IMG/VR virus record: IMGVR_UViG_3300047546_001470
Length of the DNA: 64,000 nt
From: an uncultured virus (IMG/VR IMGVR_UViG_3300047546_001470)
Lineage: Duplodnaviria > Heunggongvirae > Uroviricota > Caudoviricetes
Reading direction: 5' to 3' (one strand)
This document shows, one piece after another, positions 1 through 46,854 of the stretch. How positions within the stretch are numbered: the first letter of the stretch is position 1; each line of letters begins with the position of its first letter. Both the position numbers and the translations under genes were made by a program. The notes beneath the pieces are model-generated. The model ran no database searches. It was not told where the DNA came from and saw only the letters and a list, made by a program, of their open reading frames with translations.

Positions 1-132
1 CCAGCATTTAGTGTCTTTAGTTTTACACCAGCATTTAGTGTCTTTAGTTTTACACCAGCATTTGGTGTCTTTAGTTTTACTCCAGCATTTGGTGTCTTTA
101 GTTTTACACCAGAGGCCACTTTTAGTTTTACC
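1..132 (+). repeat. 27-bp coding tandem repeat, 4 copies plus a degenerate 24-bp copy
   Basis: Unit CCAGCATTTRGTGTCTTTAGTTTTACW starts at 1, 28, 55 and 82; CCAGAGGCCACTTTTAGTTTTACC at 109. Confidence 0.95.
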
Positions 133-168
133 CCAGAGGCTAGTTTTAACTTTGCACCCTGGGGCTAA
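1..168 (+). CDS. 3' end of a 5'-truncated protein with Phe-rich tandem repeats, ending FNFAPWG
   Basis: Not in the ORF track. Frame 1 reads PAFSVFSFT PAFSVFSFT PAFGVFSFT PAFGVFSFT PEATFSFT PEASFNFAPWG then TAA (166-168). The last 7 residues match those of 7050..8258. Confidence 0.85.
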   Translation, partial: PAFSVFSFTPAFSVFSFTPAFGVFSFTPAFGVFSFTPEATFSFTPEASFNFAPWG

Positions 169-173
169 ACTAT

Positions 174-734
174 TTAATTAGGAAATTTGCCTAACCATTC
201 TTTTGCTTTTGGAGTTAATCCTTTCCAAGAACTCCAGTCTTCTCCGCCATTTGTCATTTTATAGGCAATTTGTGCATTTACAACTGGATTAAATAAGTCA
301 GCATTGTGATCTAAATCATACTTTTTACGACGATCTGGACCAAGCATTCCAAGCATGTTTATTTGAAAAATACCATATGAACTGTCTCCAGTTTCAGTAT
401 TTCCATTGAATGCAAATGGTCGACCATTACTTTCTCTCTTAGCAATAGCCCAAGCCTCCTTAAGATTTTGACCTTCAAATCCTACTAATTTTAATAGATT
501 TTTAAGATCTTTATCAGATAGAGATGTAGCATTTTTATATTTTTCTAACTGATCTTCTTTAGCCTTAGAAACACTTTTGGCCACTTCCGTGGCCTCAATA
601 GTCTCTTCAAGCGTGATAGTTTTACTATCTAATCGGTTTTCAGAAGCATTGGCAATGTTTGACCAAACGGAAAACATCACCAATATGCTGAGTGTTCCAA
701 TGATATTCCTATTATTATTCATAAAGTTAATCAT
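174..734 (-). CDS. Secreted lysozyme-like/lytic transglycosylase (SLT/Rpf-like)
   Basis: N-terminal hydrophobic signal ending ANA; catalytic-type AIAKRESNG, YGIFQIN, NAQIAY and WSSW motifs. Start moved from 779 to ATG 734, which follows an AAGGAGG RBS. Confidence 0.8.
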   Translation of the reverse strand: MINFMNNNRNIIGTLSILVMFSVWSNIANASENRLDSKTITLEETIEATEVAKSVSKAKEDQLEKYKNATSLSDKDLKNLLKLVGFEGQNLKEAWAIAKRESNGRPFAFNGNTETGDSSYGIFQINMLGMLGPDRRKKYDLDHNADLFNPVVNAQIAYKMTNGGEDWSSWKGLTPKAKEWLGKFPN

Positions 735-755
735 AGTTTCCTCCTTAGAAACGGA

Positions 756-779
756 ATGACACCTTTTTAAGGGTGTCAT
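756..779 (-). promoter_or_regulatory. Hairpin in the 5' leader of the transglycosylase gene
   Basis: Perfect 8-bp inverted repeat ATGACACC-N8-GGTGTCAT, lying between a minus-strand TATACT (about 790-795) and the RBS. Confidence 0.5.
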
Positions 780-840
780 ATTACTTCTAAGTATAACACA
801 ATTTAGTCAAGGTAGTCAAATAATGATATAATTACTGTCT

Positions 841-1398
841 ATGGCAGATACAACAGATAATTATAATTTAAAATTTCCAGAAGCAACAGATTCTGTAAAT
901 GTTCATAATGATATTAAAAAGTTAGCAGATTCTGTTGATACAGCATTACAATCTTTAGACGCATCTAATGTTAGAATAAAGGTTATTAATAAAACATCAA
1001 ATAATATTTCTGCTGGAAAACCAGTTTATGCTGCAACATGGTTTGATCCTGATTTAAATCAAGAAAGAGGTCAAAATAATGGAAGAACAGTTATTAAACC
1101 TTTTACCTCAGAGTTATCTGATAATTATCCATTTTTAGGATTAACAAAAGAACAAATAAATGCAAATGGAGGAACTGGAGAAGTTGTTGTTTCTGGAGTC
1201 CTTTCTGGACAAAATATAAATACATCATCTTTTCAAGCAGGAGATCTTTTATATCCAACTTCTGGTGGTGGACTATCTACTACTGTAAATGGTGGAGCAA
1301 TTGGTGTAGTTGCTTTAGCAGCAACGAGTAATGGAGTTATAGTTGTTCAAGCAAAAGGTAATGGAACATGGGGAGCATTAAAGGCTGGATTAGCCTAA
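841..1398 (+). CDS. Putative virion/tail accessory protein
   Basis: 185-aa ORF with a fibre-like N-terminus (TTDNYNLKFPEATD) and a Gly-rich beta C-terminal part; lies in the fibre cluster. Confidence 0.55.
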   Translation: MADTTDNYNLKFPEATDSVNVHNDIKKLADSVDTALQSLDASNVRIKVINKTSNNISAGKPVYAATWFDPDLNQERGQNNGRTVIKPFTSELSDNYPFLGLTKEQINANGGTGEVVVSGVLSGQNINTSSFQAGDLLYPTSGGGLSTTVNGGAIGVVALAATSNGVIVVQAKGNGTWGALKAGLA

Positions 1399-1416
1399 AT
1401 ATGATATAATCGACAT

Positions 1417-1806
1417 ATGGCTACCTTCCGAAATCAACCCACAGACTCATATGCTTTAGGTTCTGCTCCACCAGAAGTTCGTTGGACGGTAGTTAGAGGA
1501 GACTCTGCAGCATTTAGAGTTTATGTAACAAACGATGCAAGAGAGCCACTATATTTAAATGATTGGGAAATTGCAATGGACATTTATCGTCCATCTACTA
1601 GTCAAGTTATAGTTTCATTATCACCAGAACCAATTGAATTTCAAGACTCAGAAGGAACATTTACAGTTAACTTAACATCTTCACAATCAGAACTTTTAGA
1701 GACAGGAGATATCTTTGACATTCAACTCACAGAACTTTTGTCTGAGGGAAGAGTCTGGACGGTAGCCAAAGGATCAATGGTTATCCTTGAAGATGTTACG
1801 CAATGA
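1417..1806 (+). CDS. Putative Ig-fold baseplate/fibre adaptor (BppU N-terminal-like)
   Basis: The pattern VVRGDS...VNLTSSQSELL...FDIQL...KGSMVILEDVT resembles BppU_N-type adaptors. Confidence 0.5.
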   Translation: MATFRNQPTDSYALGSAPPEVRWTVVRGDSAAFRVYVTNDAREPLYLNDWEIAMDIYRPSTSQVIVSLSPEPIEFQDSEGTFTVNLTSSQSELLETGDIFDIQLTELLSEGRVWTVAKGSMVILEDVTQ

Positions 1807-2051
1807 GCAATTATAATTTAATCCCAGTAAATCAAGAAGTTTTTAATACAACTCATAAAAAAGCACATGCACAAATTAAAGAACTTGATAAAAGATATAT
1901 CAGAATAGATCATATACAACCAAAAGCAAGAATTGAAGAAGTTTTACCTTTTCGTGTACAGTTTATCAATGTTAGCGTGTTTGGGTATTCAAAAAATAAT
2001 CCACCCCCAATACCGCTTCAAATTATTGGATATAGTAATTATATTCTATAA
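1803..2051 (+). CDS. Hypothetical protein
   Basis: 82-aa ORF with an ATGA overlap to the upstream gene. Confidence 0.65.
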   Translation: MSNYNLIPVNQEVFNTTHKKAHAQIKELDKRYIRIDHIQPKARIEEVLPFRVQFINVSVFGYSKNNPPPIPLQIIGYSNYIL

Positions 2052-2074
2052 TAAAAAGGAGTTATAATACCATC

Positions 2075-2521
2075 ATGGCAAAAATATCAATACCTAATCT
2101 AAAGACAAAGTTTGAGACTGGGGATCGCCCCACGCAACAAGATTATGAGGATTTAATTGATTCAGCCTCAGCCCGTTCAACCGACCTTGGTTCAATGGGT
2201 AATAATGAAAATACAATTACGGGTATTGAAAATGCCACAGTAATTGATAACTTTGACGCCACAGAATGGCGTATGGTTAAGTATATTGTTTCTATCGCAA
2301 AAGTAACTGCGGGAGATAATAAATTCTATGCAACAGAGTTGACCATCTTGGTAGACGGCACAAATGTGAATGTCTCTGAGTATGGCACAATAGACAATGA
2401 TGGGAATATTGGCACCGTTAGCGTCTCCAGGGTTGGAAATACAGTATCCTTAACGGTTACTCCAGATCCTGCGATTAAGCCAGTCACAGTTCGTTATGCA
2501 CGAATTGGACTTAAGGCATAA
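2075..2521 (+). CDS. Virion structural protein sharing its beta domain with the C-terminus of 2538..4151
   Basis: N-terminal LKTKFETGDRPTQQDYEDLIDS. WRMVKYIV..SEYGTI..GTVSVSRVGNTVSLTVT aligns by eye with YRSAEFLV..TEYAMV..GSVSADVSGNDVRLRVT. Confidence 0.65.
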   Translation: MAKISIPNLKTKFETGDRPTQQDYEDLIDSASARSTDLGSMGNNENTITGIENATVIDNFDATEWRMVKYIVSIAKVTAGDNKFYATELTILVDGTNVNVSEYGTIDNDGNIGTVSVSRVGNTVSLTVTPDPAIKPVTVRYARIGLKA

Positions 2522-2537
2522 ACAAGGAGATAAATAA

Positions 2538-4151
2538 ATGGCAACAGTAAACAAAGACTTTAAAGTAAAGAATGGTCTCATCGTTGAAGGCACAACAGCC
2601 ACAGTTAACAACTATGACATTCTTACAAAGAAGACAGACGATCAAAACTATATCGTCAATTTAATTGGTGGTACAGCCACCTCAGCAAACGAAGCAAACA
2701 AGGTTGTAAAGCGTGATGGCTCAGGCAACTTTGCTGCAGGAGTAATAACAGCAGACCTCGTTGGTGATGTAACTGGTAATGCAGATACAGCAACAGCACT
2801 TGAGACTTCTCGCACAATTGAACTTACTGGTGATGTAACTGGTCAAGTTAATTTTAATGGTACACAAAATGTACAAATTTCTACAACATTAAATGGATCT
2901 TTTGCAACAGATGCAGAGGTTGCAACAGCAAAGTCTGAAGCAATTTCAGCAGCATCATCAGATGCAACTACAAAGGCAAATGCGGCTCAAGCAGCAGCAG
3001 AACTTACAGCATCAAATGCTCTTTCTTCAGCAGTAACAACTCTTGAAGGACAGATTGCAGACGCAGAAACAGACGCAAATACTTACACAGACAATGCTAT
3101 TACAGCACTTAATCTCGCTGGCACATATGATGCACTTGGTGCAGCAGCAGATGCTCTTGCAGATGCAAATACATACACAGATGGTAAAGTTTCAGCGCTT
3201 GTAGATTCAGCACCAGAATTACTTAATACTCTTAATGAGTTAGCAGCAGCAATTGCTGATAATCCAAACTATGCAACAGATGTTGCTAACTTGGTTGCAA
3301 CAAAGGCTGATACTACTTATGTAGACGGAGAAATTTCAGCAGTAGATACAGCAGCACAAGGCTATGCTTCAACAGCACAGTCAAATGCACAATCATTTGC
3401 TACAACTGCAGCAAACAATGCTCAGTCTGCAGCAGAAGATTATGCTGATGGACTTGCAATCAATTATGATTCAGCAGGTTCTGCAGCAGCAGCACAGACA
3501 GCAGCACAGTTATATGCTGATGGTCTTGATGATGCAACAAATACTCGTATTGATAACCTTACAACATCAAATGTTGCAGAAGGTACAAACCTTTATTACA
3601 CTGATGCTCGTGCAAAGGCAGAAGCAGCAACGCTTCTTGCAAATGCAACAAAGACTAACATTGTAATTACAAAAGATGGATCAAATAATCTTACAATTAC
3701 CGCAGAAAACGGTGTTGCAGATTCTGACACAGATGACCTTGCAGAAGGAACAAACCATCTTTACTTCACAAATGCTCGTGCAGTAGATGCTCTTGAAGCA
3801 GTTGTTCCTAACTTTACAGCAGTTGAACTTAATTCAATTGCAAAGCAGGTAGCAGCAACCGCTTCTATCGCTACAGCAAGCACAAACAACGCAATTTCAT
3901 GGTTGAAGGCAGACTATCGTTCTGCTGAATTCCTTGTTAAGATTGCTAATGGATCTCATACAGATGTATCCAAGGTTATCTTGACACTTGACACTTCAGA
4001 TAATGTCGCTATTACAGAATACGCAATGGTTGGAACAAACGGTTCTCTTGGATCAGTTTCAGCAGATGTTTCTGGCAATGATGTTCGTCTTCGTGTCACT
4101 ACCGCCAACAACAACTCAACAGTTGCTGTTATCGGAACACTTTTAGCATAA
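2538..4151 (+). CDS. Tail fibre protein
   Basis: AAGGAG RBS; Ala/Thr-rich coiled segments; fibre motifs VDSAPELLNTLNELAAA, EGTNLYYTDARA/EGTNHLYFTNARA and LTGDVTG. Confidence 0.8.
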   Translation: MATVNKDFKVKNGLIVEGTTATVNNYDILTKKTDDQNYIVNLIGGTATSANEANKVVKRDGSGNFAAGVITADLVGDVTGNADTATALETSRTIELTGDVTGQVNFNGTQNVQISTTLNGSFATDAEVATAKSEAISAASSDATTKANAAQAAAELTASNALSSAVTTLEGQIADAETDANTYTDNAITALNLAGTYDALGAAADALADANTYTDGKVSALVDSAPELLNTLNELAAAIADNPNYATDVANLVATKADTTYVDGEISAVDTAAQGYASTAQSNAQSFATTAANNAQSAAEDYADGLAINYDSAGSAAAAQTAAQLYADGLDDATNTRIDNLTTSNVAEGTNLYYTDARAKAEAATLLANATKTNIVITKDGSNNLTITAENGVADSDTDDLAEGTNHLYFTNARAVDALEAVVPNFTAVELNSIAKQVAATASIATASTNNAISWLKADYRSAEFLVKIANGSHTDVSKVILTLDTSDNVAITEYAMVGTNGSLGSVSADVSGNDVRLRVTTANNNSTVAVIGTLLA

Positions 4152-4180
4152 AAAATAAATAAAAAGAGGGAGTGGTAATC

Positions 4181-4699: not shown

Positions 4700-7018
4700 A
4701 TGGCAACAAGAATGCAACAACGCAGAGGAACCGCAGCACAATGGACTGCAGCGAATCCAACTTTAGCAGCAGGAGAAATCGGATTTGAAACCGATACCAA
4801 CCAGTTCAAAATTGGAAACGGGTCTTCGGCATGGTCTGCCCTCTCCTATTTTAAAAATTTAGATGGCCTTGATGGCGTAGGTGGAATAGTAACCCTAAAC
4901 GCACAAGGTATGATCGATATAGCATTAATCCCACAAGGCGTGGCATTAGATGCAGAGTTAACTCAATATATTGAAGATCATAATAATGAGACAACAGGTG
5001 TTCATGGAATTTCTAATACAGCAAATCTTGTATATCAAACAGACCTAACAACTACGGTAAATGACGCAATTTCATTAGAAGTAAATAATAGAAACGATGC
5101 AATTTCTGATGCTATTGGACAAGAAGTAACAAACCGTAACACTGCAATTGATGATGCTATTGCATTAGAAGTAACAGAGCGCAATACTGCAATTAATGAT
5201 GCTATTGCCCTAGAAGTCTCTGCTAGAGATGTGGCTATTGATGATGCTATTGCTCAAGAAGTAACAGATAGAAATAATGCAATAGGAAATGAGATTGCAG
5301 CAGAAGTTTCTGATAGAAATCAGGCTATTGATGATGCTATTGCTCAAGAAGTAACAGATAGAAATAATGCAATAGGCACAGAAATTGGTACACATAATTC
5401 TGACACAACTGGTGTTCATGGAATTACAGATACAGCAGCACTTGCAACAAAAACATATGCAGACAATGCAGCATCAGCAGTAGGATCTTCTGCTTCAGCA
5501 AATCTAACTGCTCATACTACAGCAACAACAAGCGTACATGGTATTGCTGATACAGCAGCACTTGCAACAAAAACATATGCAGATGGAGCAGTTTCGACAG
5601 CAGTTGCAGCATTGACAAAGTCTTCCGTAGGACTTGGAAATGTTGATAATACATCTGATGCAAATAAGCCAATATCAACTGCAACACAGTCTGCACTTGA
5701 TCTAAAGGCACCGCTTGCTTCTCCAACATTTACTGGCACAGTATCTGGAGTTACAAAAGCAATGGTTGGACTTGGTAATGCAGACAATACTTCCGATGCT
5801 AATAAGCCAGTTTCAACTGCTACACAAACAGCACTTGATCTTAAGGCTCCTCTTGCAGGACCTACCTTTACAGGAACTGTTACTCTTCCATCAACAACAT
5901 CAATTGGAAATGTTTCAGCAACTGAACTTGGATATGTTGACGGTGTAACCTCAGCAATTCAAACACAATTAGATTCTAAGTTAGCACTTGCTGGCGGAAC
6001 AATGACAGGAGCCTTGACACTTTCGGGCGCACCATCAGCAGATTTACATGCAGCAACTAAGGCATATGTAGATAATGTAACTGCAGGAATTAACTTCCAT
6101 CAGCCAGTTCGTGTTGCTACAACAGCAAATATTACATTAAGCGGAACACAAACAATTGATGGAGTTTCTTTATCTGTTGGTGATCGTGTTCTTGTTAAGG
6201 ATCAAACAACTCAAACACAAAATGGTATTTATGTAGTTGCTTCAGGTTCATGGACAAGAGCAACAGATGCAGACAATACTCCAGACGGAGAGTTAAAGGG
6301 TGGAGATTTCACTCTAGTACTTGAAGGTACTGTTAACTCAGGATACGGATACGTTTGCTCTAACACATCAGCAATTACAATTGGAACAACAAATGTTACC
6401 TACGCAGCATTTAATGCTGCTAAAGCAATAACAGCAGGTTCAGGTCTTACAGAATCAACACCAGGAACAATTGAAATTGCAACTGGTGGAGTTACATCAG
6501 CAATGATTGCAGATGGAACTATCGTAAATGCAGATATTAATGCGTCTGCAGCAATTGATCAATCCAAGATTTCTGGACTTTCAGCATCATTTGCTGCTAA
6601 AGCAGATCTTGCATCACCAACCTTCACTGGAACCGTAACTCTTCCAGCAGCAGGTATCGTATTTTCAGACGGCACACAGTCTAAAGAAGGCGTTCCTTCA
6701 AGAACGCCAATTATTCAAAAGTCCGCAGCATATACACTATCTGCACTTTCTGAAAGAGACTCTATGATTGAAGTTTCACACACTGGCGGAACTGCTGTAG
6801 ATATTACAATTCCAGCAAACTCCTCAGTTGCATATCCAGTAGGAACATCTATTGATGTTCTTCGTACAAATACTGGTGGAGTAAGAATTGTCGGAGCAGC
6901 AGGAGTAACAGTAAATGGTACACCTGGTGCATATTTAAGAGCACAATGGTCTGCAGCAACCTTATTTAAGAGAGCAACAGATACTTGGGTCTTGATAGGC
7001 GACCTCGCTACGGCGTAA
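4700..7018 (+). CDS. Tail fibre protein with Mtd/hyaluronidase-like N-terminal domain
   Basis: N-terminus RMQQRRGTAAQWTAANPTLAAGEIGFETDT; 15-aa EVTxRNxAI repeats; VGLGNVDNTSDANKP and APLASPTFTG repeats; GDRVLVKDQT..NGIY domain. Confidence 0.85.
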   Translation: MATRMQQRRGTAAQWTAANPTLAAGEIGFETDTNQFKIGNGSSAWSALSYFKNLDGLDGVGGIVTLNAQGMIDIALIPQGVALDAELTQYIEDHNNETTGVHGISNTANLVYQTDLTTTVNDAISLEVNNRNDAISDAIGQEVTNRNTAIDDAIALEVTERNTAINDAIALEVSARDVAIDDAIAQEVTDRNNAIGNEIAAEVSDRNQAIDDAIAQEVTDRNNAIGTEIGTHNSDTTGVHGITDTAALATKTYADNAASAVGSSASANLTAHTTATTSVHGIADTAALATKTYADGAVSTAVAALTKSSVGLGNVDNTSDANKPISTATQSALDLKAPLASPTFTGTVSGVTKAMVGLGNADNTSDANKPVSTATQTALDLKAPLAGPTFTGTVTLPSTTSIGNVSATELGYVDGVTSAIQTQLDSKLALAGGTMTGALTLSGAPSADLHAATKAYVDNVTAGINFHQPVRVATTANITLSGTQTIDGVSLSVGDRVLVKDQTTQTQNGIYVVASGSWTRATDADNTPDGELKGGDFTLVLEGTVNSGYGYVCSNTSAITIGTTNVTYAAFNAAKAITAGSGLTESTPGTIEIATGGVTSAMIADGTIVNADINASAAIDQSKISGLSASFAAKADLASPTFTGTVTLPAAGIVFSDGTQSKEGVPSRTPIIQKSAAYTLSALSERDSMIEVSHTGGTAVDITIPANSSVAYPVGTSIDVLRTNTGGVRIVGAAGVTVNGTPGAYLRAQWSAATLFKRATDTWVLIGDLATA
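5062..5376 (+). repeat. 45-bp-period coding repeat (coiled-coil shaft) containing an identical 54-bp direct repeat
   Basis: GGCTATTGATGATGCTATTGCTCAAGAAGTAACAGATAGAAATAATGCAATAGG occurs at 5233-5286 and 5323-5376. Confidence 0.85.
5429..5583 (+). repeat. 35-bp direct repeat within the fibre gene
   Basis: GATACAGCAGCACTTGCAACAAAAACATATGCAGA occurs at 5429-5463 and 5549-5583. Confidence 0.85.
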
Positions 7019-7049: not shown

Positions 7050-8258
7050 ATGGCAGGTAAACTTGGAAGAAAAGCAGGTCAGCAATCATGGCCTAATGAT
7101 GTAACAATTACCACTGCAACAGACGTTGGTACGAATCGTCCATATGCTGCCTCAGCAGCATCAACAGAGGCAGGAGCCTCTGGTGTTGGAGGATCTGTAA
7201 GTCTTGCATGGTCTTTACCAGCAGGATCAGCAGAAGCATCATCTTATACCATTACTACTACTCCTTCTACTTATTCAAAAACGGTATCTGGAACAAGCAC
7301 TACATTTGAAGGACTTGCATCTAATACAGCATATACATTTACAATTAAAGCAAATAATAGTGTAGGCTCTTCTGCAGGAACAACATCTTCTTCAGTAACT
7401 GCTACTACAGTTCCTCAAGCACCAACACTTTCATCTGCAACAGATGTTGGAACAAATAGACCCTATAACAATGGATCTGTTTCTGTTGCATTTACTGCCA
7501 ACGCTACTGGTGGAAAATCAATAACAAGTTATACAGTATCTGGTGGAGGATATTCTGCTTCTGGAGCAACTTCCCCATTGGCTCCAACAGGATACGCTAC
7601 TGGTGCAACTCCAACGTTTACAGTCACTGCTACAAATGGAAATGGTACTTCATTAGCATCTTCTGCTTCTAGTGCTGTTACAGTAACAACTGTTCCAGAT
7701 ACACCAGCAGCACCAACAGTATCATCTCCAACGCCTTCTGCTGGAGTTAACGTTGCTGGAACTACAACAGACAGCGTATCTTGGTCTGCACCAGCAAATG
7801 GTGGAAAGGCTATTAGTCAATATACCTGGACATCTTCGGACTCAAAGTCTGGAACAACAGCAGGAACATCGGTTTCTGTAAATCAAGAAGGTGGAACTGC
7901 TCAAACTTATCAGGTTCGTGCAGAAAATGCTAATGGTGCTGGAAATTATTCTTCTGCATCTTCTAGCGTTACAACATTCCAATTTACTCCATTCTCGGTC
8001 TTCGGATTCTCACCATTCGGTGTATTTTCCTTCGCACCATTCTCGGTCTTCGGCTTCTCACCATTCGGTGTATTTTCCTTCGCACCATTCTCGGTCTTCG
8101 GCTTCTCACCATTCGGTGTGTTTGGCTTCTCACCATTCGGTGTCTTCGGCTTCTCACCATTCGGTGTCTTCGGCTTCTCACCATTCGGTGTGTTTGGCTT
8201 CTCACCATTCAGCGTGTTCGGCTTCTCACCAGCGTTTAACTTTGCTCCTTGGGGCTAA
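7050..8258 (+). CDS. Fibronectin type III-like repeat protein with a C-terminal (PFxVFxFx)10-PAFNFAPWG tail
   Basis: Three FN3-like units (SLAWS..YTIT..GLASNTAYTFTIKANNSVG; GGKSITSYTV..FTVTATNGNG; VSWSAPANGGKAISQY..YQVRAENANG); AAGGAG RBS. Confidence 0.85.
   Translation: MAGKLGRKAGQQSWPNDVTITTATDVGTNRPYAASAASTEAGASGVGGSVSLAWSLPAGSAEASSYTITTTPSTYSKTVSGTSTTFEGLASNTAYTFTIKANNSVGSSAGTTSSSVTATTVPQAPTLSSATDVGTNRPYNNGSVSVAFTANATGGKSITSYTVSGGGYSASGATSPLAPTGYATGATPTFTVTATNGNGTSLASSASSAVTVTTVPDTPAAPTVSSPTPSAGVNVAGTTTDSVSWSAPANGGKAISQYTWTSSDSKSGTTAGTSVSVNQEGGTAQTYQVRAENANGAGNYSSASSSVTTFQFTPFSVFGFSPFGVFSFAPFSVFGFSPFGVFSFAPFSVFGFSPFGVFGFSPFGVFGFSPFGVFGFSPFGVFGFSPFSVFGFSPAFNFAPWG
7989..8228 (+). repeat. 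24-bp coding tandem repeat x10
   Basis: Consensus CCATTCGGTGTNTTYGGCTTCTCA. The first five units alternate as a 48-bp higher-order repeat (PFSVFGFS/PFGVFSFA). Confidence 0.95.
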
Positions 8259-8300: not shown

Positions 8301-8960
8301 ATGCAAAATCAAGGAATGAGTCCAACTGCAAAATTTGGAACTAAGCCACATAAATTTTTTGAAAGACATTTAAATAATGATCTTAATAAATTGTCTAATT
8401 TTTTATCTGATAGATATGAAAAAATAGAAAGAGCCGAAATAGATGGTGTAACTCCTTTGGGTTCTGCAGGACACGAATATTGGGTAAAATCTGGAAGTAC
8501 TTCCACAGTAAAATGGAGAGAGTACAATGTTTTTCAATTTCATAGTGAAGAAATATATAATGTTTTTAAAGGTGTTAAAGATGCAACAAAAGAGGCATGT
8601 GAATATTATGATATTGACTTTGATGCACAAAACTTTATGGTTCAGGGATGGTTTAATATAACTCATAAGGGTAAAGGCAAATTAGATTGGCATGATCATG
8701 GTCAACCAGGAGCACCAAATTTTCACGGGTATTATAGTGTTAAAGCAGAGCCTTCTACAACACATTATCATGTGTATGGAGAAGTGGTAGATCATCATAA
8801 TATTGATAATAAATTAATTGTTTCTGAAATGGGTCATCAGCATGCTATGGCAGATTGGGATTGGGAAGGTCCAAGAATAACAATCGCTTACGACATTATT
8901 CCATTGGAATATTTAATTAGGGCAAATGCTGCCGAACAGCATTGGATCCCATTGTTATGA
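8301..8960 (+). CDS. Putative 2OG-Fe(II) oxygenase/cupin (TIGR02466-like)
   Basis: GWFN..WHDH..FHGYY..H..RITIAYDI matches the W-x-N/HxH/GxYY/H/RxxIxF pattern of this double-stranded beta-helix family. Confidence 0.7.
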   Translation: MQNQGMSPTAKFGTKPHKFFERHLNNDLNKLSNFLSDRYEKIERAEIDGVTPLGSAGHEYWVKSGSTSTVKWREYNVFQFHSEEIYNVFKGVKDATKEACEYYDIDFDAQNFMVQGWFNITHKGKGKLDWHDHGQPGAPNFHGYYSVKAEPSTTHYHVYGEVVDHHNIDNKLIVSEMGHQHAMADWDWEGPRITIAYDIIPLEYLIRANAAEQHWIPLL

Positions 8961-9634
8961 TAGCAATGAAGCCACCACATAAATTTTTTGAATCATTTAT
9001 TGATAATGATTTAGATTTTTTATTTGACTATTTAGTAGAAAAACAATCGGAATTACTTTCTGGTTCTTTAGCACCTATTCCAGAAGATGTTTTATCAAAG
9101 TATAACAAAGATAATGGACCAACAACACAATTAGGAAACTATTATAATATTTTTAATTTTGAAAATAATGAAATTAAAAATTTAAAAATATCTTTATCTA
9201 ATTTAACTAAAGAAGCATGTGAGTATTATAATTTTAATTATGAAGAACTGGACTTTATGATTCACGGCTGGTATAATTTAGATTATAAAACTTATGGAAG
9301 TTGGGACGAAAAAAAACAAAAAATAATGGCTGTAAATGGTGGAGTTAGTCCAATAAATAATGCCCATTCATTTCATGATCATGCAGAGGGCACAGGAGCA
9401 CCAATCTTTCATGGTTATTATTGTGTTAACGCTGAACCATCTATAACATTTTATAAAATAAATAAACAAGTGTTATTTGAAAATCACAATAAAAACAATA
9501 GAGCAATAGTATCAGAAACAGGACACCCACACGGTAGAGATGATTGGTATGAGGACAAGCCAAGAATTACAATTGCTTATGATATTGCTCCAAAAGATTC
9601 TCACGTAGTAACAGAGTTATGGACAAAATTATGA
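8957..9634 (+). CDS. Putative 2OG-Fe(II) oxygenase/cupin, paralogue of the upstream gene
   Basis: Shares PHKFFE, TKEACEYY, HDH, FHGYY, AEPS, VSExGHxH and PRITIAYDI with 8301..8960. ATG 8957 overlaps the upstream TGA. Confidence 0.7.
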   Translation: MIAMKPPHKFFESFIDNDLDFLFDYLVEKQSELLSGSLAPIPEDVLSKYNKDNGPTTQLGNYYNIFNFENNEIKNLKISLSNLTKEACEYYNFNYEELDFMIHGWYNLDYKTYGSWDEKKQKIMAVNGGVSPINNAHSFHDHAEGTGAPIFHGYYCVNAEPSITFYKINKQVLFENHNKNNRAIVSETGHPHGRDDWYEDKPRITIAYDIAPKDSHVVTELWTKL

Positions 9635-9847: not shown

Positions 9848-11881
9848 GTGTCAGATTTTTTTAGTTTTCGCTTGTCAGAAGATTTTATAAATGAGTATAA
9901 AACAAAAGAACCACCATTTGGATTTACAGATGCTGGTGGTAATTCACTAGGAGAGATTACGTTTATTCGTACCTACTCTCGAATGAAGGAAGATGGAACT
10001 AAAGAAAGATGGTATGAGGTTTGTCGTCGAGTAATTGAGGGCATGTATTCAGCCCAAAAGAATCACGCCAAAGAAAACAGACTCCCTTGGAATGACTATA
10101 AAGCACAGGCTTCTGCAAAAGAAGCATATCAGCGTTTGTTTGAGTTAAAGTGGACACCACCAGGGCGAGGCCTATGGTCTTTTGGCACGGCACTTACAAT
10201 GGAAAAGAAAAACTCAGCAGCATTACAAAATTGTGCTATGGTATCTACAAAAGATATAGACAGAAATGATCCAGGAACATTATTTGCTTGGGTTATGGAT
10301 GCGCTTATGATGGGTGTAGGTGTAGGATTTGATACTGTCGGGGCAGAAAAAAAGTTACCTATTTATGACCCTACAGAACCACCACAGGTTTATGAAATCC
10401 CAGATACTCGTGAGGGCTGGGTAGAATCTGTTAGATTATTAATTAACTCATTTTTAAAACCTAATATGTACATACAAGAATTTAACTATGACCTCATTCG
10501 TCCTTTAGGAGCACCTATTAAAGGGTTTGGAGGCACAGCAAGCGGTCCTGCACCACTTATACAGTTACACAAGCAGATAAGGTCTGTAATCGGCGGTAGG
10601 GCAGGAGAAACACTTGACTCAAGAGCAATAGTAGATATCGTTAACCTCATTGGCACCTGCGTGGTATCAGGAAATGTTAGACGATCTGCAACATTGGCTC
10701 TAGGTAATGCTCAAGATGAAGACTTTATGAATCTTAAGAATTCTGAGGTTTTCCCAGAAAGAAATTCATTTGATCCAGAAAATCCAGGTTGGGCCTGGAT
10801 GTCAAACAATTCTGTTTCTGCGACGGTAGGCACAAAGTACGAAGAATATGTAGACCTTATTGCTAATAACGGAGAACCTGGTTTTATATGGTTAGATGTG
10901 GCAAGAAATTACGGGCGTTTAAAAGATCCTGCTGACGGAAAAGATTATAGAGTCATGGGCTTTAATCCTTGTGCAGAACAACCTTTGGAGTCATATGAAC
11001 TATGCACCTTGGTTGAAGTACATTTAAACCGTCATGAGTCTAAAGAAGATTTTTTGCGTACATTAAAGTTTGCATATTTGTATGGCAAGACGGTAACGCT
11101 GATACCAACACACTGGCAACAGACAAATGGAATTATGCAGCGTAATCGTCGCATTGGAACATCACTAACTGGTATTGCTTCATTTTCAGACAAATTTGGT
11201 TTGCCTGTTGTGCGTGAATGGATGGACGAAGGCTATGAAACTATACGTAGATATGATCATAAATATTCTGAATGGTTATGCGTTCGTGATTCCATTAGAG
11301 TCACAACTGTTAAACCATCAGGGTCTGTATCAATTCTTTCTGGCGCAACGCCTGGAGTTCACTGGGCGCCTGGTGGAAACTATTTCTTGAGAGCAATTCG
11401 TTTTGGGAATACCGACCCAATGATTCATTTGTTCAAGGCTGCTGGATATAAAATGGAGGCTGACCTTGTATCTGCGAATACAACTGTCGTTTATTTCCCA
11501 GTACATTCTGGTCATTCAAGGTCTGAAAAAGATGTAACGTTATTTGAGAAGATTGCGCTTGCTGCTACTGCTCAGAAATATTGGTCTGATAACGGCGTGT
11601 CTGTAACGCTTTCATTTGACAAAGAAACTGAAACAAAGCACATTGCGCCAGCGCTTCATATGTACGAAGGACAGTTAAAGGCGGTATCATTTTTACCTAT
11701 GGGTAATACTGTGTATCCACAACAACCATATACAGAGATTACTGAAGAGGAGTATAATAGTTATATAGGACAAATAAAGAAGATAGACTGGTCCGCTATT
11801 TACGATGGAGCAGAAAATTTGGAGGCACAGGGAGAAATGTACTGCACAACTGATGCTTGTGAGATAAGGATTAAATCATGA
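9848..11881 (+). CDS. nrdJ: Class II (adenosylcobalamin-dependent) ribonucleotide reductase, monomeric RTPR type
   Basis: PPGRGLW, LQNC, GNVRRSA, FNPCAEQ..ELCTL and TTVKPSG motifs; C-terminal redox pair YCTTDAC; no beta-subunit gene nearby. Confidence 0.93.
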   Translation: MSDFFSFRLSEDFINEYKTKEPPFGFTDAGGNSLGEITFIRTYSRMKEDGTKERWYEVCRRVIEGMYSAQKNHAKENRLPWNDYKAQASAKEAYQRLFELKWTPPGRGLWSFGTALTMEKKNSAALQNCAMVSTKDIDRNDPGTLFAWVMDALMMGVGVGFDTVGAEKKLPIYDPTEPPQVYEIPDTREGWVESVRLLINSFLKPNMYIQEFNYDLIRPLGAPIKGFGGTASGPAPLIQLHKQIRSVIGGRAGETLDSRAIVDIVNLIGTCVVSGNVRRSATLALGNAQDEDFMNLKNSEVFPERNSFDPENPGWAWMSNNSVSATVGTKYEEYVDLIANNGEPGFIWLDVARNYGRLKDPADGKDYRVMGFNPCAEQPLESYELCTLVEVHLNRHESKEDFLRTLKFAYLYGKTVTLIPTHWQQTNGIMQRNRRIGTSLTGIASFSDKFGLPVVREWMDEGYETIRRYDHKYSEWLCVRDSIRVTTVKPSGSVSILSGATPGVHWAPGGNYFLRAIRFGNTDPMIHLFKAAGYKMEADLVSANTTVVYFPVHSGHSRSEKDVTLFEKIALAATAQKYWSDNGVSVTLSFDKETETKHIAPALHMYEGQLKAVSFLPMGNTVYPQQPYTEITEEEYNSYIGQIKKIDWSAIYDGAENLEAQGEMYCTTDACEIRIKS

Positions 11882-12399
11882 TAGATAAAATAAAGTATGT
11901 AGAAGAATTTATGCCAAGAGATATTGCTTTAAGGATATCTGATTATGCAAAAAAATATACAGATGATTTTCCAGAATATGGGAATAATGAACAAGAATTT
12001 ACTGTTCATACATACAACGAAATAAAGGCTAGAGATCCAGAACTGTTGGATATAATGCAAGAGTATGCAATTAAAGTTTATAATTTTGTAAAAGAAAATT
12101 ACGATGGCCCATTTCAAGATTTCCTTCATGAAAAAACACATATAGCAAAATTTGTTGCTGGAAAAGGAATGCACGAACATTTTGATTCTAACAGACCAAA
12201 TGACATAGCAACCTTAGTTTACTTAAATGATGACTATGTCGGAGGAGATATTTATTTTCCAAAATATAACATATCCTATAAGCCAAAGCCAGGAGATCTT
12301 CTTTGTTTTCCAGACAATCCAGACTATGTTCATGGAGTAAAGGTTATAGATTTAGGAACAAGATATACTGCTCCTAGATGGTTTACACGCATCGTATGA
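11878..12399 (+). CDS. Prolyl 4-hydroxylase-like 2OG-Fe(II) oxygenase
   Basis: HFD..ATLVYLNDDYVGGDIYF..PKPGDLLCFP..HGV..GTRY gives the canonical HxD...H...R arrangement. Confidence 0.88.
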   Translation: MIDKIKYVEEFMPRDIALRISDYAKKYTDDFPEYGNNEQEFTVHTYNEIKARDPELLDIMQEYAIKVYNFVKENYDGPFQDFLHEKTHIAKFVAGKGMHEHFDSNRPNDIATLVYLNDDYVGGDIYFPKYNISYKPKPGDLLCFPDNPDYVHGVKVIDLGTRYTAPRWFTRIV

Positions 12400-45109: not shown

Positions 45110-45406
45110 ATGAAAAAAAATAATATGGAATGGCTACAAGCATTAAAAACAATGGGCCATAAAGAATATTGGACAAAAGCAAATACTGTAGAATTTTTTG
45201 CATTTGTTGCAAAAGCATCAATTATATTTCCTGGATTGTTATTCGGCAAAGAGATTTGGTGGCTGTATATTTTTGCTTTAGTTTCAAGCATCGGCTTGAT
45301 CTGGTCTTCAACAGTAAAAACAATACCAACCCTCATATGGTTTAATATATTGTGGTCTATACTTGCTATTATTTATATTGCTAAGTATTTCGGCTTAATT
45401 CTATGA
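45110..45406 (+). CDS. Small multi-pass membrane protein
   Basis: About three hydrophobic Trp-rich helices; ATGA-coupled to the next gene. Confidence 0.7.
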   Translation: MKKNNMEWLQALKTMGHKEYWTKANTVEFFAFVAKASIIFPGLLFGKEIWWLYIFALVSSIGLIWSSTVKTIPTLIWFNILWSILAIIYIAKYFGLIL

Positions 45407-46854
45407 AGATAGTAGTTATTGGTGGCGGTACTGCTGGATATTTAGCAGCACTTACTATTAAGCATAAATATAAGAACTCTGACATTACAATAATTGATAG
45501 TTCTAAAATAGGTGTTTTAGGTGCTGGAGAAGGAACAACTTCAAATTTTAAATATATCTTTGATGAGTTAGAGTTGCCACTAGATGAATTTATAGAGCAT
45601 ACAGGGGCAACATTAAAAAATGGAATAAGATTTACAGGATGGTCTAAAAGCAATAAATCATACTTCCATCCATTAACAAACTATGTTGCCGATACTCAAG
45701 ACAATAGAGAAATAATTTTAACAAATTTTAAAAATGCTTCCATGGAGTTAATGTTTAACGGTAAAACACTTGATGAAATAAATAAAGGCTTGGCTGCCAC
45801 AGAAAAAAATACATTGACCTGGCCTTATATAGGATGGCATTTAGATGCAATTAAACTTGCTGAATTTTTTAGAAAACATTCCGAGTTACGTGGAATAAAG
45901 GTTGTTGATGATGTATTTACATATTTTGGAGAATTTGATGGCAACATAAGTGTGGTGCATACAGAAAAAGGAGCCTACGACTGTAACTTTGTAATAGATG
46001 CAACAGGCTTTAAAAATTTAGTTGTTGGAAAACATTTGCAATCAGAATGGGTAGATACGTCTGAAAGTTTACCGTGCACAAAAGCATTGGCATTCTTTTT
46101 ACCACAAGATGAAAATTATTCCTTATGTACTGAAATAATTGCAATGAAATATGGCTGGGTTTGGAAGACGCCATTAAAGCATAGGTATGGATGTGGATAT
46201 GTTTATGATCCCTCATATATAAATAAAGAGCAAGCAGAAGAAGAAATATATCAATTATTTAAAAAAGAAGATATAAAAATAGTAAATCATTTTGATTTTA
46301 ATTCAGGATATTATAAACAACCATGGATTAAAAATTGTTTATCGGTAGGACTGGCATCTGGATTTTTTGAACCATTACATGCAACCTCAATTATGCTAAC
46401 AATTTATATGATGAGTCTTTTTATATCTGATGAATTTTTAAATAAATTTATAGAAGAAAAAGATTATTCAGTAATAGAAAAATATAACAATAAAATACTA
46501 GAAAAAAATAAAGAATTATTAGGTTTTATATATATTCATTATTTAACTGATAGAGACGACACAGACTTTTGGAAAAACTTTAAACAAAAAAATGTTATTC
46601 CAGAATATGCCAAAATAGTGTTATCTGAATTAGATGATAATTGTATATCTGATTTTATTATTAAAAATAATAATAAAACATTTGGATATCAGTCTTGGAT
46701 GACAACCTATGTTGGAACAGGACAATTTAATAAAAATAATACAGTTTCTAATTTGCAAACAAGAGAAGCATATGATAAACTGTATAAAGAAGCAAAAGAG
46801 TTTAAAGGAATAGAGATAGAAGAGTATTTTAATAAATATAACTCAATTACTTGA
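45403..46854 (+). CDS. Tryptophan halogenase-like flavoprotein
   Basis: GGGTAG FAD motif, GAGEGT, ATLKNGIRF (Lys at the catalytic position), DATGF, GWVWKTP, GLASGFFEPLHATSI. Confidence 0.88.
   Translation: MKIVVIGGGTAGYLAALTIKHKYKNSDITIIDSSKIGVLGAGEGTTSNFKYIFDELELPLDEFIEHTGATLKNGIRFTGWSKSNKSYFHPLTNYVADTQDNREIILTNFKNASMELMFNGKTLDEINKGLAATEKNTLTWPYIGWHLDAIKLAEFFRKHSELRGIKVVDDVFTYFGEFDGNISVVHTEKGAYDCNFVIDATGFKNLVVGKHLQSEWVDTSESLPCTKALAFFLPQDENYSLCTEIIAMKYGWVWKTPLKHRYGCGYVYDPSYINKEQAEEEIYQLFKKEDIKIVNHFDFNSGYYKQPWIKNCLSVGLASGFFEPLHATSIMLTIYMMSLFISDEFLNKFIEEKDYSVIEKYNNKILEKNKELLGFIYIHYLTDRDDTDFWKNFKQKNVIPEYAKIVLSELDDNCISDFIIKNNNKTFGYQSWMTTYVGTGQFNKNNTVSNLQTREAYDKLYKEAKEFKGIEIEEYFNKYNSIT

Follow-up and report, generated by a model that had tools for sequence, protein, structure and literature searches.

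In phage T4, and in Mu and lambda, fibre genes are followed by tail-fibre accessory, chaperone or adhesin genes (gp38 and Tfa, respectively). The PASTA domain is known from peptidoglycan-sensing kinases and penicillin-binding proteins (PBPs), and the FG-repeats of nucleoporins are rich in phenylalanine (Phe) and glycine (Gly), low in charge and predicted to be disordered. Here we describe two Phe-repeat genes, A and B, of an uncultured virus of the Caudoviricetes (IMG/VR record IMGVR_UViG_3300047546_001470). The window, by which we mean the whole stretch of 64,000 nucleotides that was analyzed, opens inside gene A and also contains gene B. Both encoded proteins end with the heptapeptide FNFAPWG, immediately followed by a stop codon (Table 1). 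A and B are two members of a large modular family of fibre partners, each built from an N-terminal domain of binding type, a Phe array and a variable end. We consider it moderately probable that the heptapeptide caps the array as a short, selected end and spreads together with it.

Genes A and B resemble gp38 and Tfa in that they lie directly after a fibre gene, consist of exchangeable modules and are duplicated together with the fibre. However, they are not known to be related to those proteins in sequence or in fold, their binding-type domain is N-terminal, and their charge-free Phe array has no known counterpart there. Protein A shares with the PknB/PrkC kinases and with PBP2x-type PBPs a PASTA domain, recognized by Pfam and by superposition of the model, but its single copy is N-terminal and is joined to neither a kinase nor a transpeptidase part. 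The arrays of A and B recall nucleoporin FG-repeats, since they are also rich in Phe and Gly, low in charge (0 of 93 residues charged in B and 5 of 159 in the second array of A) and predicted to be disordered; no homology is claimed. Relative to FG-repeats, they are denser in Phe (30–38%), lack hydrophilic spacers, are punctuated by a proline (Pro) every 8–9 residues and form a module of phage fibres.

Two fibre partners with a common C-terminal heptapeptide

The first-pass annotation, made from the letters of the window alone, had placed the 5′ edge of the window inside a Phe-repeat gene ending with FNFAPWG and a stop codon. This was confirmed: frame 1 of positions 1..168 belongs to a real gene and reads PAFSVFSFT (twice), PAFGVFSFT (twice), PEATFSFT, PEAS and FNFAPWG before TAA. 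Gene B, for which the end PA-FNFAPWG-stop had been reported, indeed terminates with SPFSVFGFSPA-FNFAPWG and TAA. The two arrays had also been described as different in unit length and in Phe codons, and we recovered both differences. Tandem Repeats Finder returned a period of 27 for window 1..112 (4.1 copies, 96% matches) and a period of 24 for window 7998..8231 (9.8 copies, 80% matches), corresponding to units of 27 bp in A and 24 bp in B. The whole gene A uses TTT for 61 of its 64 Phe codons (3 TTC), whereas the array and tail of gene B use TTC for 27 of 34 (7 TTT). Nine long open reading frames (ORFs) of the window together contain 313 TTT and 47 TTC codons, which makes the array of B the odd one out. 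The tail of B is encoded by TTT AAC TTT GCT CCT TGG GGC TAA and differs from that of A at two synonymous sites only (GCT CCT vs. GCA CCC), as first reported.

The part of gene A that lies upstream of the window was taken from the reverse strand of a viral contig (L005), which matches window 1..4168 with 100% identity and extends it upstream by 3856 bases. The nearest record (G001) spans only window 10881 onwards and hence does not include gene A. As anticipated, the upstream frame is open and coding, and the full gene encodes a protein of 350 amino acids (P0001). The FN3 or Ig domains considered for this upstream part were not found by Pfam, which detected instead a single PASTA domain (PF03793) at residues 16–73 (E = 3.8e-10; 40 bits relative to a cut-off of 23.2). 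The N-terminus, MLNSLWTFLAKGMG, leads directly into this domain. The modelled fold is also of the PASTA type, as the top Foldseek matches are the PASTA domains of PknB, PrkC and a PBP (PBP1), with template modelling (TM) scores of up to 0.78 on the target. The PASTA domain is followed by four SPFGVFGF units similar to those of B, by an insert of ~75 residues rich in cysteine (Cys), tryptophan (Trp) and arginine (Arg), by a second array and by the tail. This second array comprises 159 residues and consists of 9-residue TPAFSVFSF units and of FNFMP units, then FNFAPWG.

The AlphaFold2 model of protein A (25-row alignment) presents a mean predicted local distance difference test score (pLDDT) of 52.6, with confident values for the PASTA domain and the insert (78–92). 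The insert contains the motifs WSEWSAW and RTYTRTRTRT as well as four Cys, and it was modelled as a long hairpin (pLDDT 86–92). It resembles a thrombospondin type 1 repeat, an identity that neither Pfam nor Foldseek confirms: the structural likeness to BAI1 TSR3 is non-significant (E = 0.36), and the Pfam family TSP_1 did not match P0001 and matched the relative P0009 below cut-off (E = 0.0048). We observed that the insert is absent from some relatives (L017) and present in two copies in others (P0007).

Both genes are part of a duplicated cassette. Gene A directly follows a gene for a fibre protein of 224 amino acids, whose last ~100 residues are homologous to the end of the tail-fibre protein encoded before gene B (41% identity over 99 amino acids between the two C-terminal domains; E = 1e-15; BLASTP). 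This C-terminal domain matches the ends of minor-tail and virion-structural families of PHROG. The Phe-repeat gene was found directly after a fibre gene with a homologous C-terminal domain in 14 of 14 loci, both for members with the FNFAPWG tail and for members with a C-terminal domain of Hint type (see below). Since A and B each follow a fibre gene with this shared C-terminal domain, fibre and partner were duplicated as a unit. In addition, window 1417..1806 and L005:7328-7759:- both match phrog_1084, and the duplication around A and B thus seems to extend beyond fibre and partner.

A large family with alternative ends

The shared heptapeptide had been taken as a recognition, assembly or capping signal common to a small protein family. 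Our searches revealed a different picture: FNFAPWG is one of many endings in a large modular family, with 272 proteins matching P0001 (E ≤ 1e-3) and 1017 proteins matching residues 1–300 of B, which correspond to its FN3 part (E ≤ 1e-5). End types were counted among the 120 matches listed in each of these searches. Nine of the 120 matches listed for P0001 end with FNFAPWG, and one relative, P0006 (65% identical), ends with FSFAPWG. Most of the other matches listed are PASTA proteins of ~297 amino acids or FN3 proteins of ~414–450 amino acids, where the Phe array is followed by a domain of ~170 amino acids that starts with Cys. Among the 120 matches listed for B, the APWG tail is found in three (the window's own cluster, P0091 with 69% identity and P0079 with 58% identity), other short ends in 37 (FNFVPR, FNFSPR, FNFAPR, FGFAPFSAWT, SPSY, R and others) and end domains of at least 100 amino acids in 31, while the remaining 49 are without FxVFxF units. 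The nearest relative of B other than itself among the matches listed (P0122; 73% identity) presents a Cys-rich end. A scan with the pattern PFGVFGF returned at least 122 stretches; proteins of this kind were found in 46 of the 80 loci that were fetched, with the same variety of ends.

The domain that starts with Cys begins, for example, as SPVSR/CIDQDTPV (the slash marks the start of the domain) and ends with VVHN-x-K-x-F or VYNAYPVD. The Pfam family Intein_splicing matched it below cut-off (E = 0.002–0.056). With a profile of 41 sequences of this domain, the best PDB sequences were the RadA intein (E = 0.0015) and the BIL domain 2lwy (E = 0.0017). We modelled one relative, P0026, with AlphaFold2 (mean pLDDT 79.5; above 90 in the C-terminal domain). 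The top PDB folds for its C-terminal domain are inteins, BIL domains (2lwy from Clostridium thermocellum, with a TM score of 0.77, and 6tmm, BIL2 of Tetrahymena BUBL) and the Hedgehog domain 1at0, with TM scores of 0.71–0.77 on the target and E-values of ~1e-7. Given the profile matches and the likeness of the predicted fold to inteins, BIL and Hedgehog domains, the C-terminal domain of these relatives is a Hint domain. A and B differ from this arrangement: the Hint fold, with its Cys, Ser or Thr nucleophile as first residue, is absent from both, and only seven residues, FNFAPWG, separate their last full unit from the stop codon. This Hint-less form shows that the design can do without a self-cleaving domain. 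We also considered whether FNFAPWG corresponds to the residues that lead up to the Hint Cys of relatives and rejected this, as the junctions read SPVSR/C, SPGGG/C and SPTTY/C.

Part of the heptapeptide belongs to the repertoire of the array. Indeed, FNFAP, FNFSP, FNFVP and FNFMP are ordinary variants of the repeat unit in relatives, and FNFAP is followed in the family by the WG end ten times, by FS or FG seven times and by an R end once. Because FNFAP is a repeat unit in relatives, the tail can be described as a last degenerate unit plus WG, at a position where the next unit would start with Phe-Gly.

We searched for back-translated FNFAPWG plus a stop codon in viral contigs, metagenome contigs and 185,579 reference prokaryote genomes. 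The viral contigs yielded 21 stretches (8 A-type and 13 B-type), all 21 of which are in frame, TAA-ended and at the end of a protein. Metagenome contigs yielded 18, of which 13 are genuine and all of A or B type; the other five read TGG instead of a stop codon. No genuine tail with stop codon was found in the 185,579 reference prokaryote genomes, where the two stretches returned both read TGG. Judging from these pattern matches, the tail with its stop codon appears only in the A- and B-type proteins of the family. The complete genomes G007 and G008 each carry exactly two tail-bearing genes.

The stretches with TGG correspond to the starts of Phage Tail Collar domains (GEIRMFGFNFAPWGW; PF07484), with a Pfam Collar E-value of 1.8e-69 for one of them. 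At these domain starts, in two genome and five metagenome stretches, FNFAPWG is followed by W; examples are L178:1518-2321:- and the metagenome contigs L241, L242, L250, L251 and L255, the set coming from a bacterial metagenome-assembled genome and metagenome contigs. However, the tails of A and B are not followed by a Collar domain, and the Collar motif was found in none of the 236 family proteins retrieved. No Collar remnant was seen downstream of the stops of A and B, after which the next genes start at 5 and 42 bases, respectively. The likeness of FNFAPWG to Collar starts may be a matter of chance or a vestige.

The family was found only in uncultured phages. We obtained no match with tblastn of B against 50,697 GenBank phage records, nor with megablast of window 1..3000 against GenBank phages, and tblastn of the Hint-type relative P0026 against GenBank phages gave one weak intein match only. 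Full-text literature searches did not return, among the papers listed, a description of a Phe-repeat family of fibre partners. What is new here is the Hint-less FNFAPWG form in both paralogues, its spread over different FN3 backgrounds, its natural truncation, the mixed pairs and the co-occurrence with a halogenase, the last four of which are presented below.

Conservation, probable exchange and possible meaning of the heptapeptide

The heptapeptide is conserved at the protein level across diverged A and B proteins, with synonymous changes, as had been proposed from the two copies of the window. All 8 of the 8 B proteins aligned carry it unchanged, while the position just before it is occupied by A, S, N or G, and it is also kept in B proteins whose FN3 part is 58–69% identical. 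Among close homologues of A, which were collected mainly via N-terminal peptides, the tail is present in 8 of the 9 that are readable, down to 53% tblastn identity. Its DNA sequence exists in four synonymous variants in A and six in B, numbers that are conditioned on the peptide, since the search demanded it. The number of repeats differs between near-identical phages (341 vs. 275 amino acids; 350 vs. 359 amino acids), which indicates that the arrays change independently. Together with the differences in unit length and codon usage, this supports the view of the first-pass annotation that the two arrays expanded independently.

We further analyzed the evolution of the ends along a FastTree phylogeny based on the 190 residues that precede the array (99 FN3-type rows, 200 columns). 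The five tail-bearing rows require four changes, all four of which are forced by starred branches, and all end types together require 21 changes relative to 47.4 in shuffles. Along the protein, identity to the B protein of the window rises from 22–86% in the first FN3 part to 89–99% in the array and tail. The changes on the tree, this rising identity and the foreign codon usage of B point to an exchange of the C-terminal module between FN3 backgrounds. An array rich in TTC on a TTT background fits an acquisition from elsewhere.

These results can be accommodated as follows. The A and B proteins would sit on or at the fibres, where their N-terminal domain (PASTA in A and FN3 in B) may contact the host cell wall or envelope. 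Taken by itself, the Phe array is predicted to be disordered; at the fibre, it would provide a greasy hydrophobic tether or anchor. Neither partner has the self-cleaving Hint domain of most relatives, and both stop after a degenerate FNFAP unit plus Trp-Gly. The heptapeptide would then cap the array with a short, selected end, placed where relatives carry a removable Hint domain, and it would spread with the array by recombination. Because the mature form of Hint-type proteins would likewise terminate soon after the array, the binding domain and the array probably form the common functional core, to which an end is added that is exchanged as a cassette. The different ends (Hint, Cys-rich, short cap and truncated cap) offer natural comparisons to address the role of the array at the fibre, and the small peptide is open to mutagenesis. 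This scenario retains from the earlier interpretation the coding upstream frame, the independent arrays and the conserved tail, and it abandons the small tail-defined family and the possibility of FN3 or Ig domains in A.

Several observations weigh against this scenario. The A protein of G003 (IMGVR_UViG_3300047550_002227), which is 98% identical, ends with FNFSP-stop after replacement of Ala by Ser and of Trp by TAG. This truncation reflects either the dispensability of WG or a contig defect or assembly error. In G004, A possesses the tail but the protein at the position of B combines a (PFFPFFPPFF)n array with a Cys-rich end; in G002, B possesses the tail but the position of A is occupied by a Pro-rich protein with a Cys-rich end. 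AlphaFold2 gave a pLDDT of ~25 for the second array and tail of A, and the arrays of both A and P0026 (residues 91–134 in the latter) scored under 50; the models thus lend the cap no structural support. Finally, the FN3 tree is a FastTree phylogeny on 200 columns and was returned with long-branch warnings.

Alternatively, though this is rather unlikely, the tail could be a non-covalent docking or assembly motif through which the array ends of both partners bind the same site, such as the C-terminal domain of the fibre, in replacement of Hint self-cleavage or transfer. A common docking site would be consistent with the fact that the two cassettes share both this fibre domain and the module formed by array and end, that several FN3 backgrounds have retained the tail and that the end type is equal in 11 of the 14 readable pairs of A and B (six tail/tail, four Hint/Hint and one R/R; two pairs are mixed and one is truncated). 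However, the 11 matched pairs are not independent, as many of them belong to phages that are nearly identical, and docking is also at odds with the two mixed pairs and the truncated tail. The mixed contigs G004 and G002 led us to reject a strict matching of end types between A and B. Moreover, the same fibre C-terminal domain occurs in phages whose ends differ widely; it thus shows no co-variation with the end type. A complex prediction for this domain (130 amino acids, 14-row alignment) and residues 300–402 of B gave a score of 0.00 in two runs without controls and speaks neither for nor against binding.

It is unlikely that the heptapeptide lacks a function of its own and is simply the stopping point of the array, inherited and spread with it by recombination. 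The occurrence of FNFAP as an ordinary unit variant would be expected under this explanation, as would the other short ends of 37 of the 120 relatives listed for B, the FNFSP end of the G003 variant and the lack of predicted structure in the tail. In contrast, a mere stopping point accounts poorly for a tail that is invariant in all eight aligned B proteins despite the variable residue before it and that persists with its seven residues among A proteins as distant as 53% tblastn identity. The tails of A and B also differ at two synonymous sites, and the ten DNA variants observed in all argue against recent copying alone.

The tryptophan halogenase and the remaining features

A further explanation, which we regard as improbable, is that the tail, and above all its single Trp, is recognized or used as substrate by a phage enzyme acting in trans (such as a Trp halogenase or a 2-oxoglutarate (2OG) oxygenase), such that the fibre partners would be post-translationally tailored. 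The window encodes a flavin-dependent protein of the Trp_halogenase family, and a gene of this family was found in 5 of 5 genomes with Trp-containing short tails: the window, G002, G007 (two copies), G008 (two copies) and G016. It was found in none of the 12 genomes of the family with other ends, four of which are at least 93% complete. The tail of G016 reads FGFAPFSAWT and its enzyme is only 35% identical to that of the window. Pattern searches for further genomes with a Trp tail or a TAAY tail yielded G016 and two short contigs only. An Oxy_3 oxygenase, encoded 3.6 kb downstream of B and directly after a class II ribonucleotide reductase (RNR), is a second candidate enzyme. However, the halogenase gene lies 37 kb away in the replication module, and four of the five positive genomes are close kin, which reduces the association to at most two independent co-occurrences. 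Distant halogenase homologues are also present in 3 of 3 complete phage genomes that have no Phe-repeat proteins, and no family match was obtained for the two ORFs that follow B directly.

Halogenases that act on peptides are known: according to PMC12615548, SrpI and MibH act on a Trp at or near the C-terminus of a peptide, the target being a C-terminal Trp for SrpI and a peptide Trp for MibH. The Trp near the end of A and B and the Trp_halogenase-family protein of the phage are reminiscent of these systems. Yet A and B have no leader peptide and their genes have no neighbourhood link to the halogenase, which makes the likeness a lead only. It seems very doubtful that the short tails with Trp (FNFAPWG, and FGFAPFSAWT in G016) are handles for phage flavin-dependent Trp halogenases and that the fibre partners are halogenated C-terminally. 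If this were the case, it would represent post-translational halogenation of a virion-associated protein and would provide a natural substrate for the many orphan Trp halogenase genes of aquatic phages.

C-terminal sorting signals consist of a motif, a hydrophobic helix and a basic end, in addition to an N-terminal signal peptide, and such a signal (LPXTG, PEP-CTERM or PGF-CTERM) was rejected for A and B, whose proteins end at the motif with nothing after it.

The window represents a large siphovirus-like phage with genes for a portal, a prohead protease, a capsid protein, a tape-measure-type protein of 2649 amino acids, DnaB, a primase, Pol III alpha, RecA and a CHAP protein. Its portal is 46–48% identical to the portals of Streptomyces phages of ~127–130 kb, and its RNR is closest to those of an Actinomycetia phage and of Mycobacterium phage Gaia; DSL-LC01, a relative by RNR, shows no colinearity with the window. 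The G+C content is 29–41%. Based on the relatives of the portal and RNR and on this composition, the host is likely a low-GC actinobacterium. The phages that carry the family are uncultured, lake-type phages, probably of actinobacteria.

The two ORFs that follow B had no match in Pfam, PHROG or PDB sequences. Their language-model features alone resemble those of 2OG-FeII_Oxy_5 phage clusters (score of 0.96), and we did not retain a prolyl-hydroxylase identity, as this language-model likeness finds no support in Pfam, PHROG or PDB sequences.

Table 1. Coordinates of the features discussed; positions refer to the window unless a contig is given
Feature	Position	Strand	Remarks
Gene A, 3′ end	1..168	+	Last 55 codons and TAA; frame 1 open at the 5′ edge of the window
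Gene A, tail codons	145..165	+	FNFAPWG = TTT AAC TTT GCA CCC TGG GGC; TAA stop at 166..168
Gene A, insert region	L005:4001-5053:-	-	Insert = gene A residues ~117-190, upstream of the window
SLT_3/lysozyme-like protein	174..779	-	Pfam SLT_3 E = 7.9e-15; convergent with gene A
Tail-fibre protein	4700..7018	+	Mtd_N at start, Pfam E = 9.3e-16; matches PHROG tail and minor-tail families; immediately before gene B
Gene B	7050..8258	+	402 amino acids; FN3 domains (Pfam fn3 E = 3.2e-10), Phe array ~7977..8234, tail 8235..8255, TAA
Two overlapping paralogous ORFs	8301..8960 and 8942..9634	+	Next genes after B; G002 has them behind its B as well
2OG-Fe(II) oxygenase (Oxy_3, prolyl-hydroxylase-type)	11878..12399	+	PF13640 E = 2.6e-08, above cut-off
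Flavin-dependent Trp_halogenase-family gene	45403..46854	+	Pfam E = 9.5e-90; replication module, between primase and Pol III alpha
G003 A tail	L035:2523-2546		TTT AAC TTT TCA CCC TAG; B of the same contig keeps FNFAPWG
G004 B-position protein	L174:17036-17980:+	+	Pure (PFFPFFPPFF)n array, Cys-rich end GGCYCGYCWRCGTCCPGRSCHC, then 2OG-FeII_Oxy_3 genes

The SLT_3 protein encoded 5 bases from the stop of gene A has a hydrophobic N-terminus, reminiscent of a signal or anchor.

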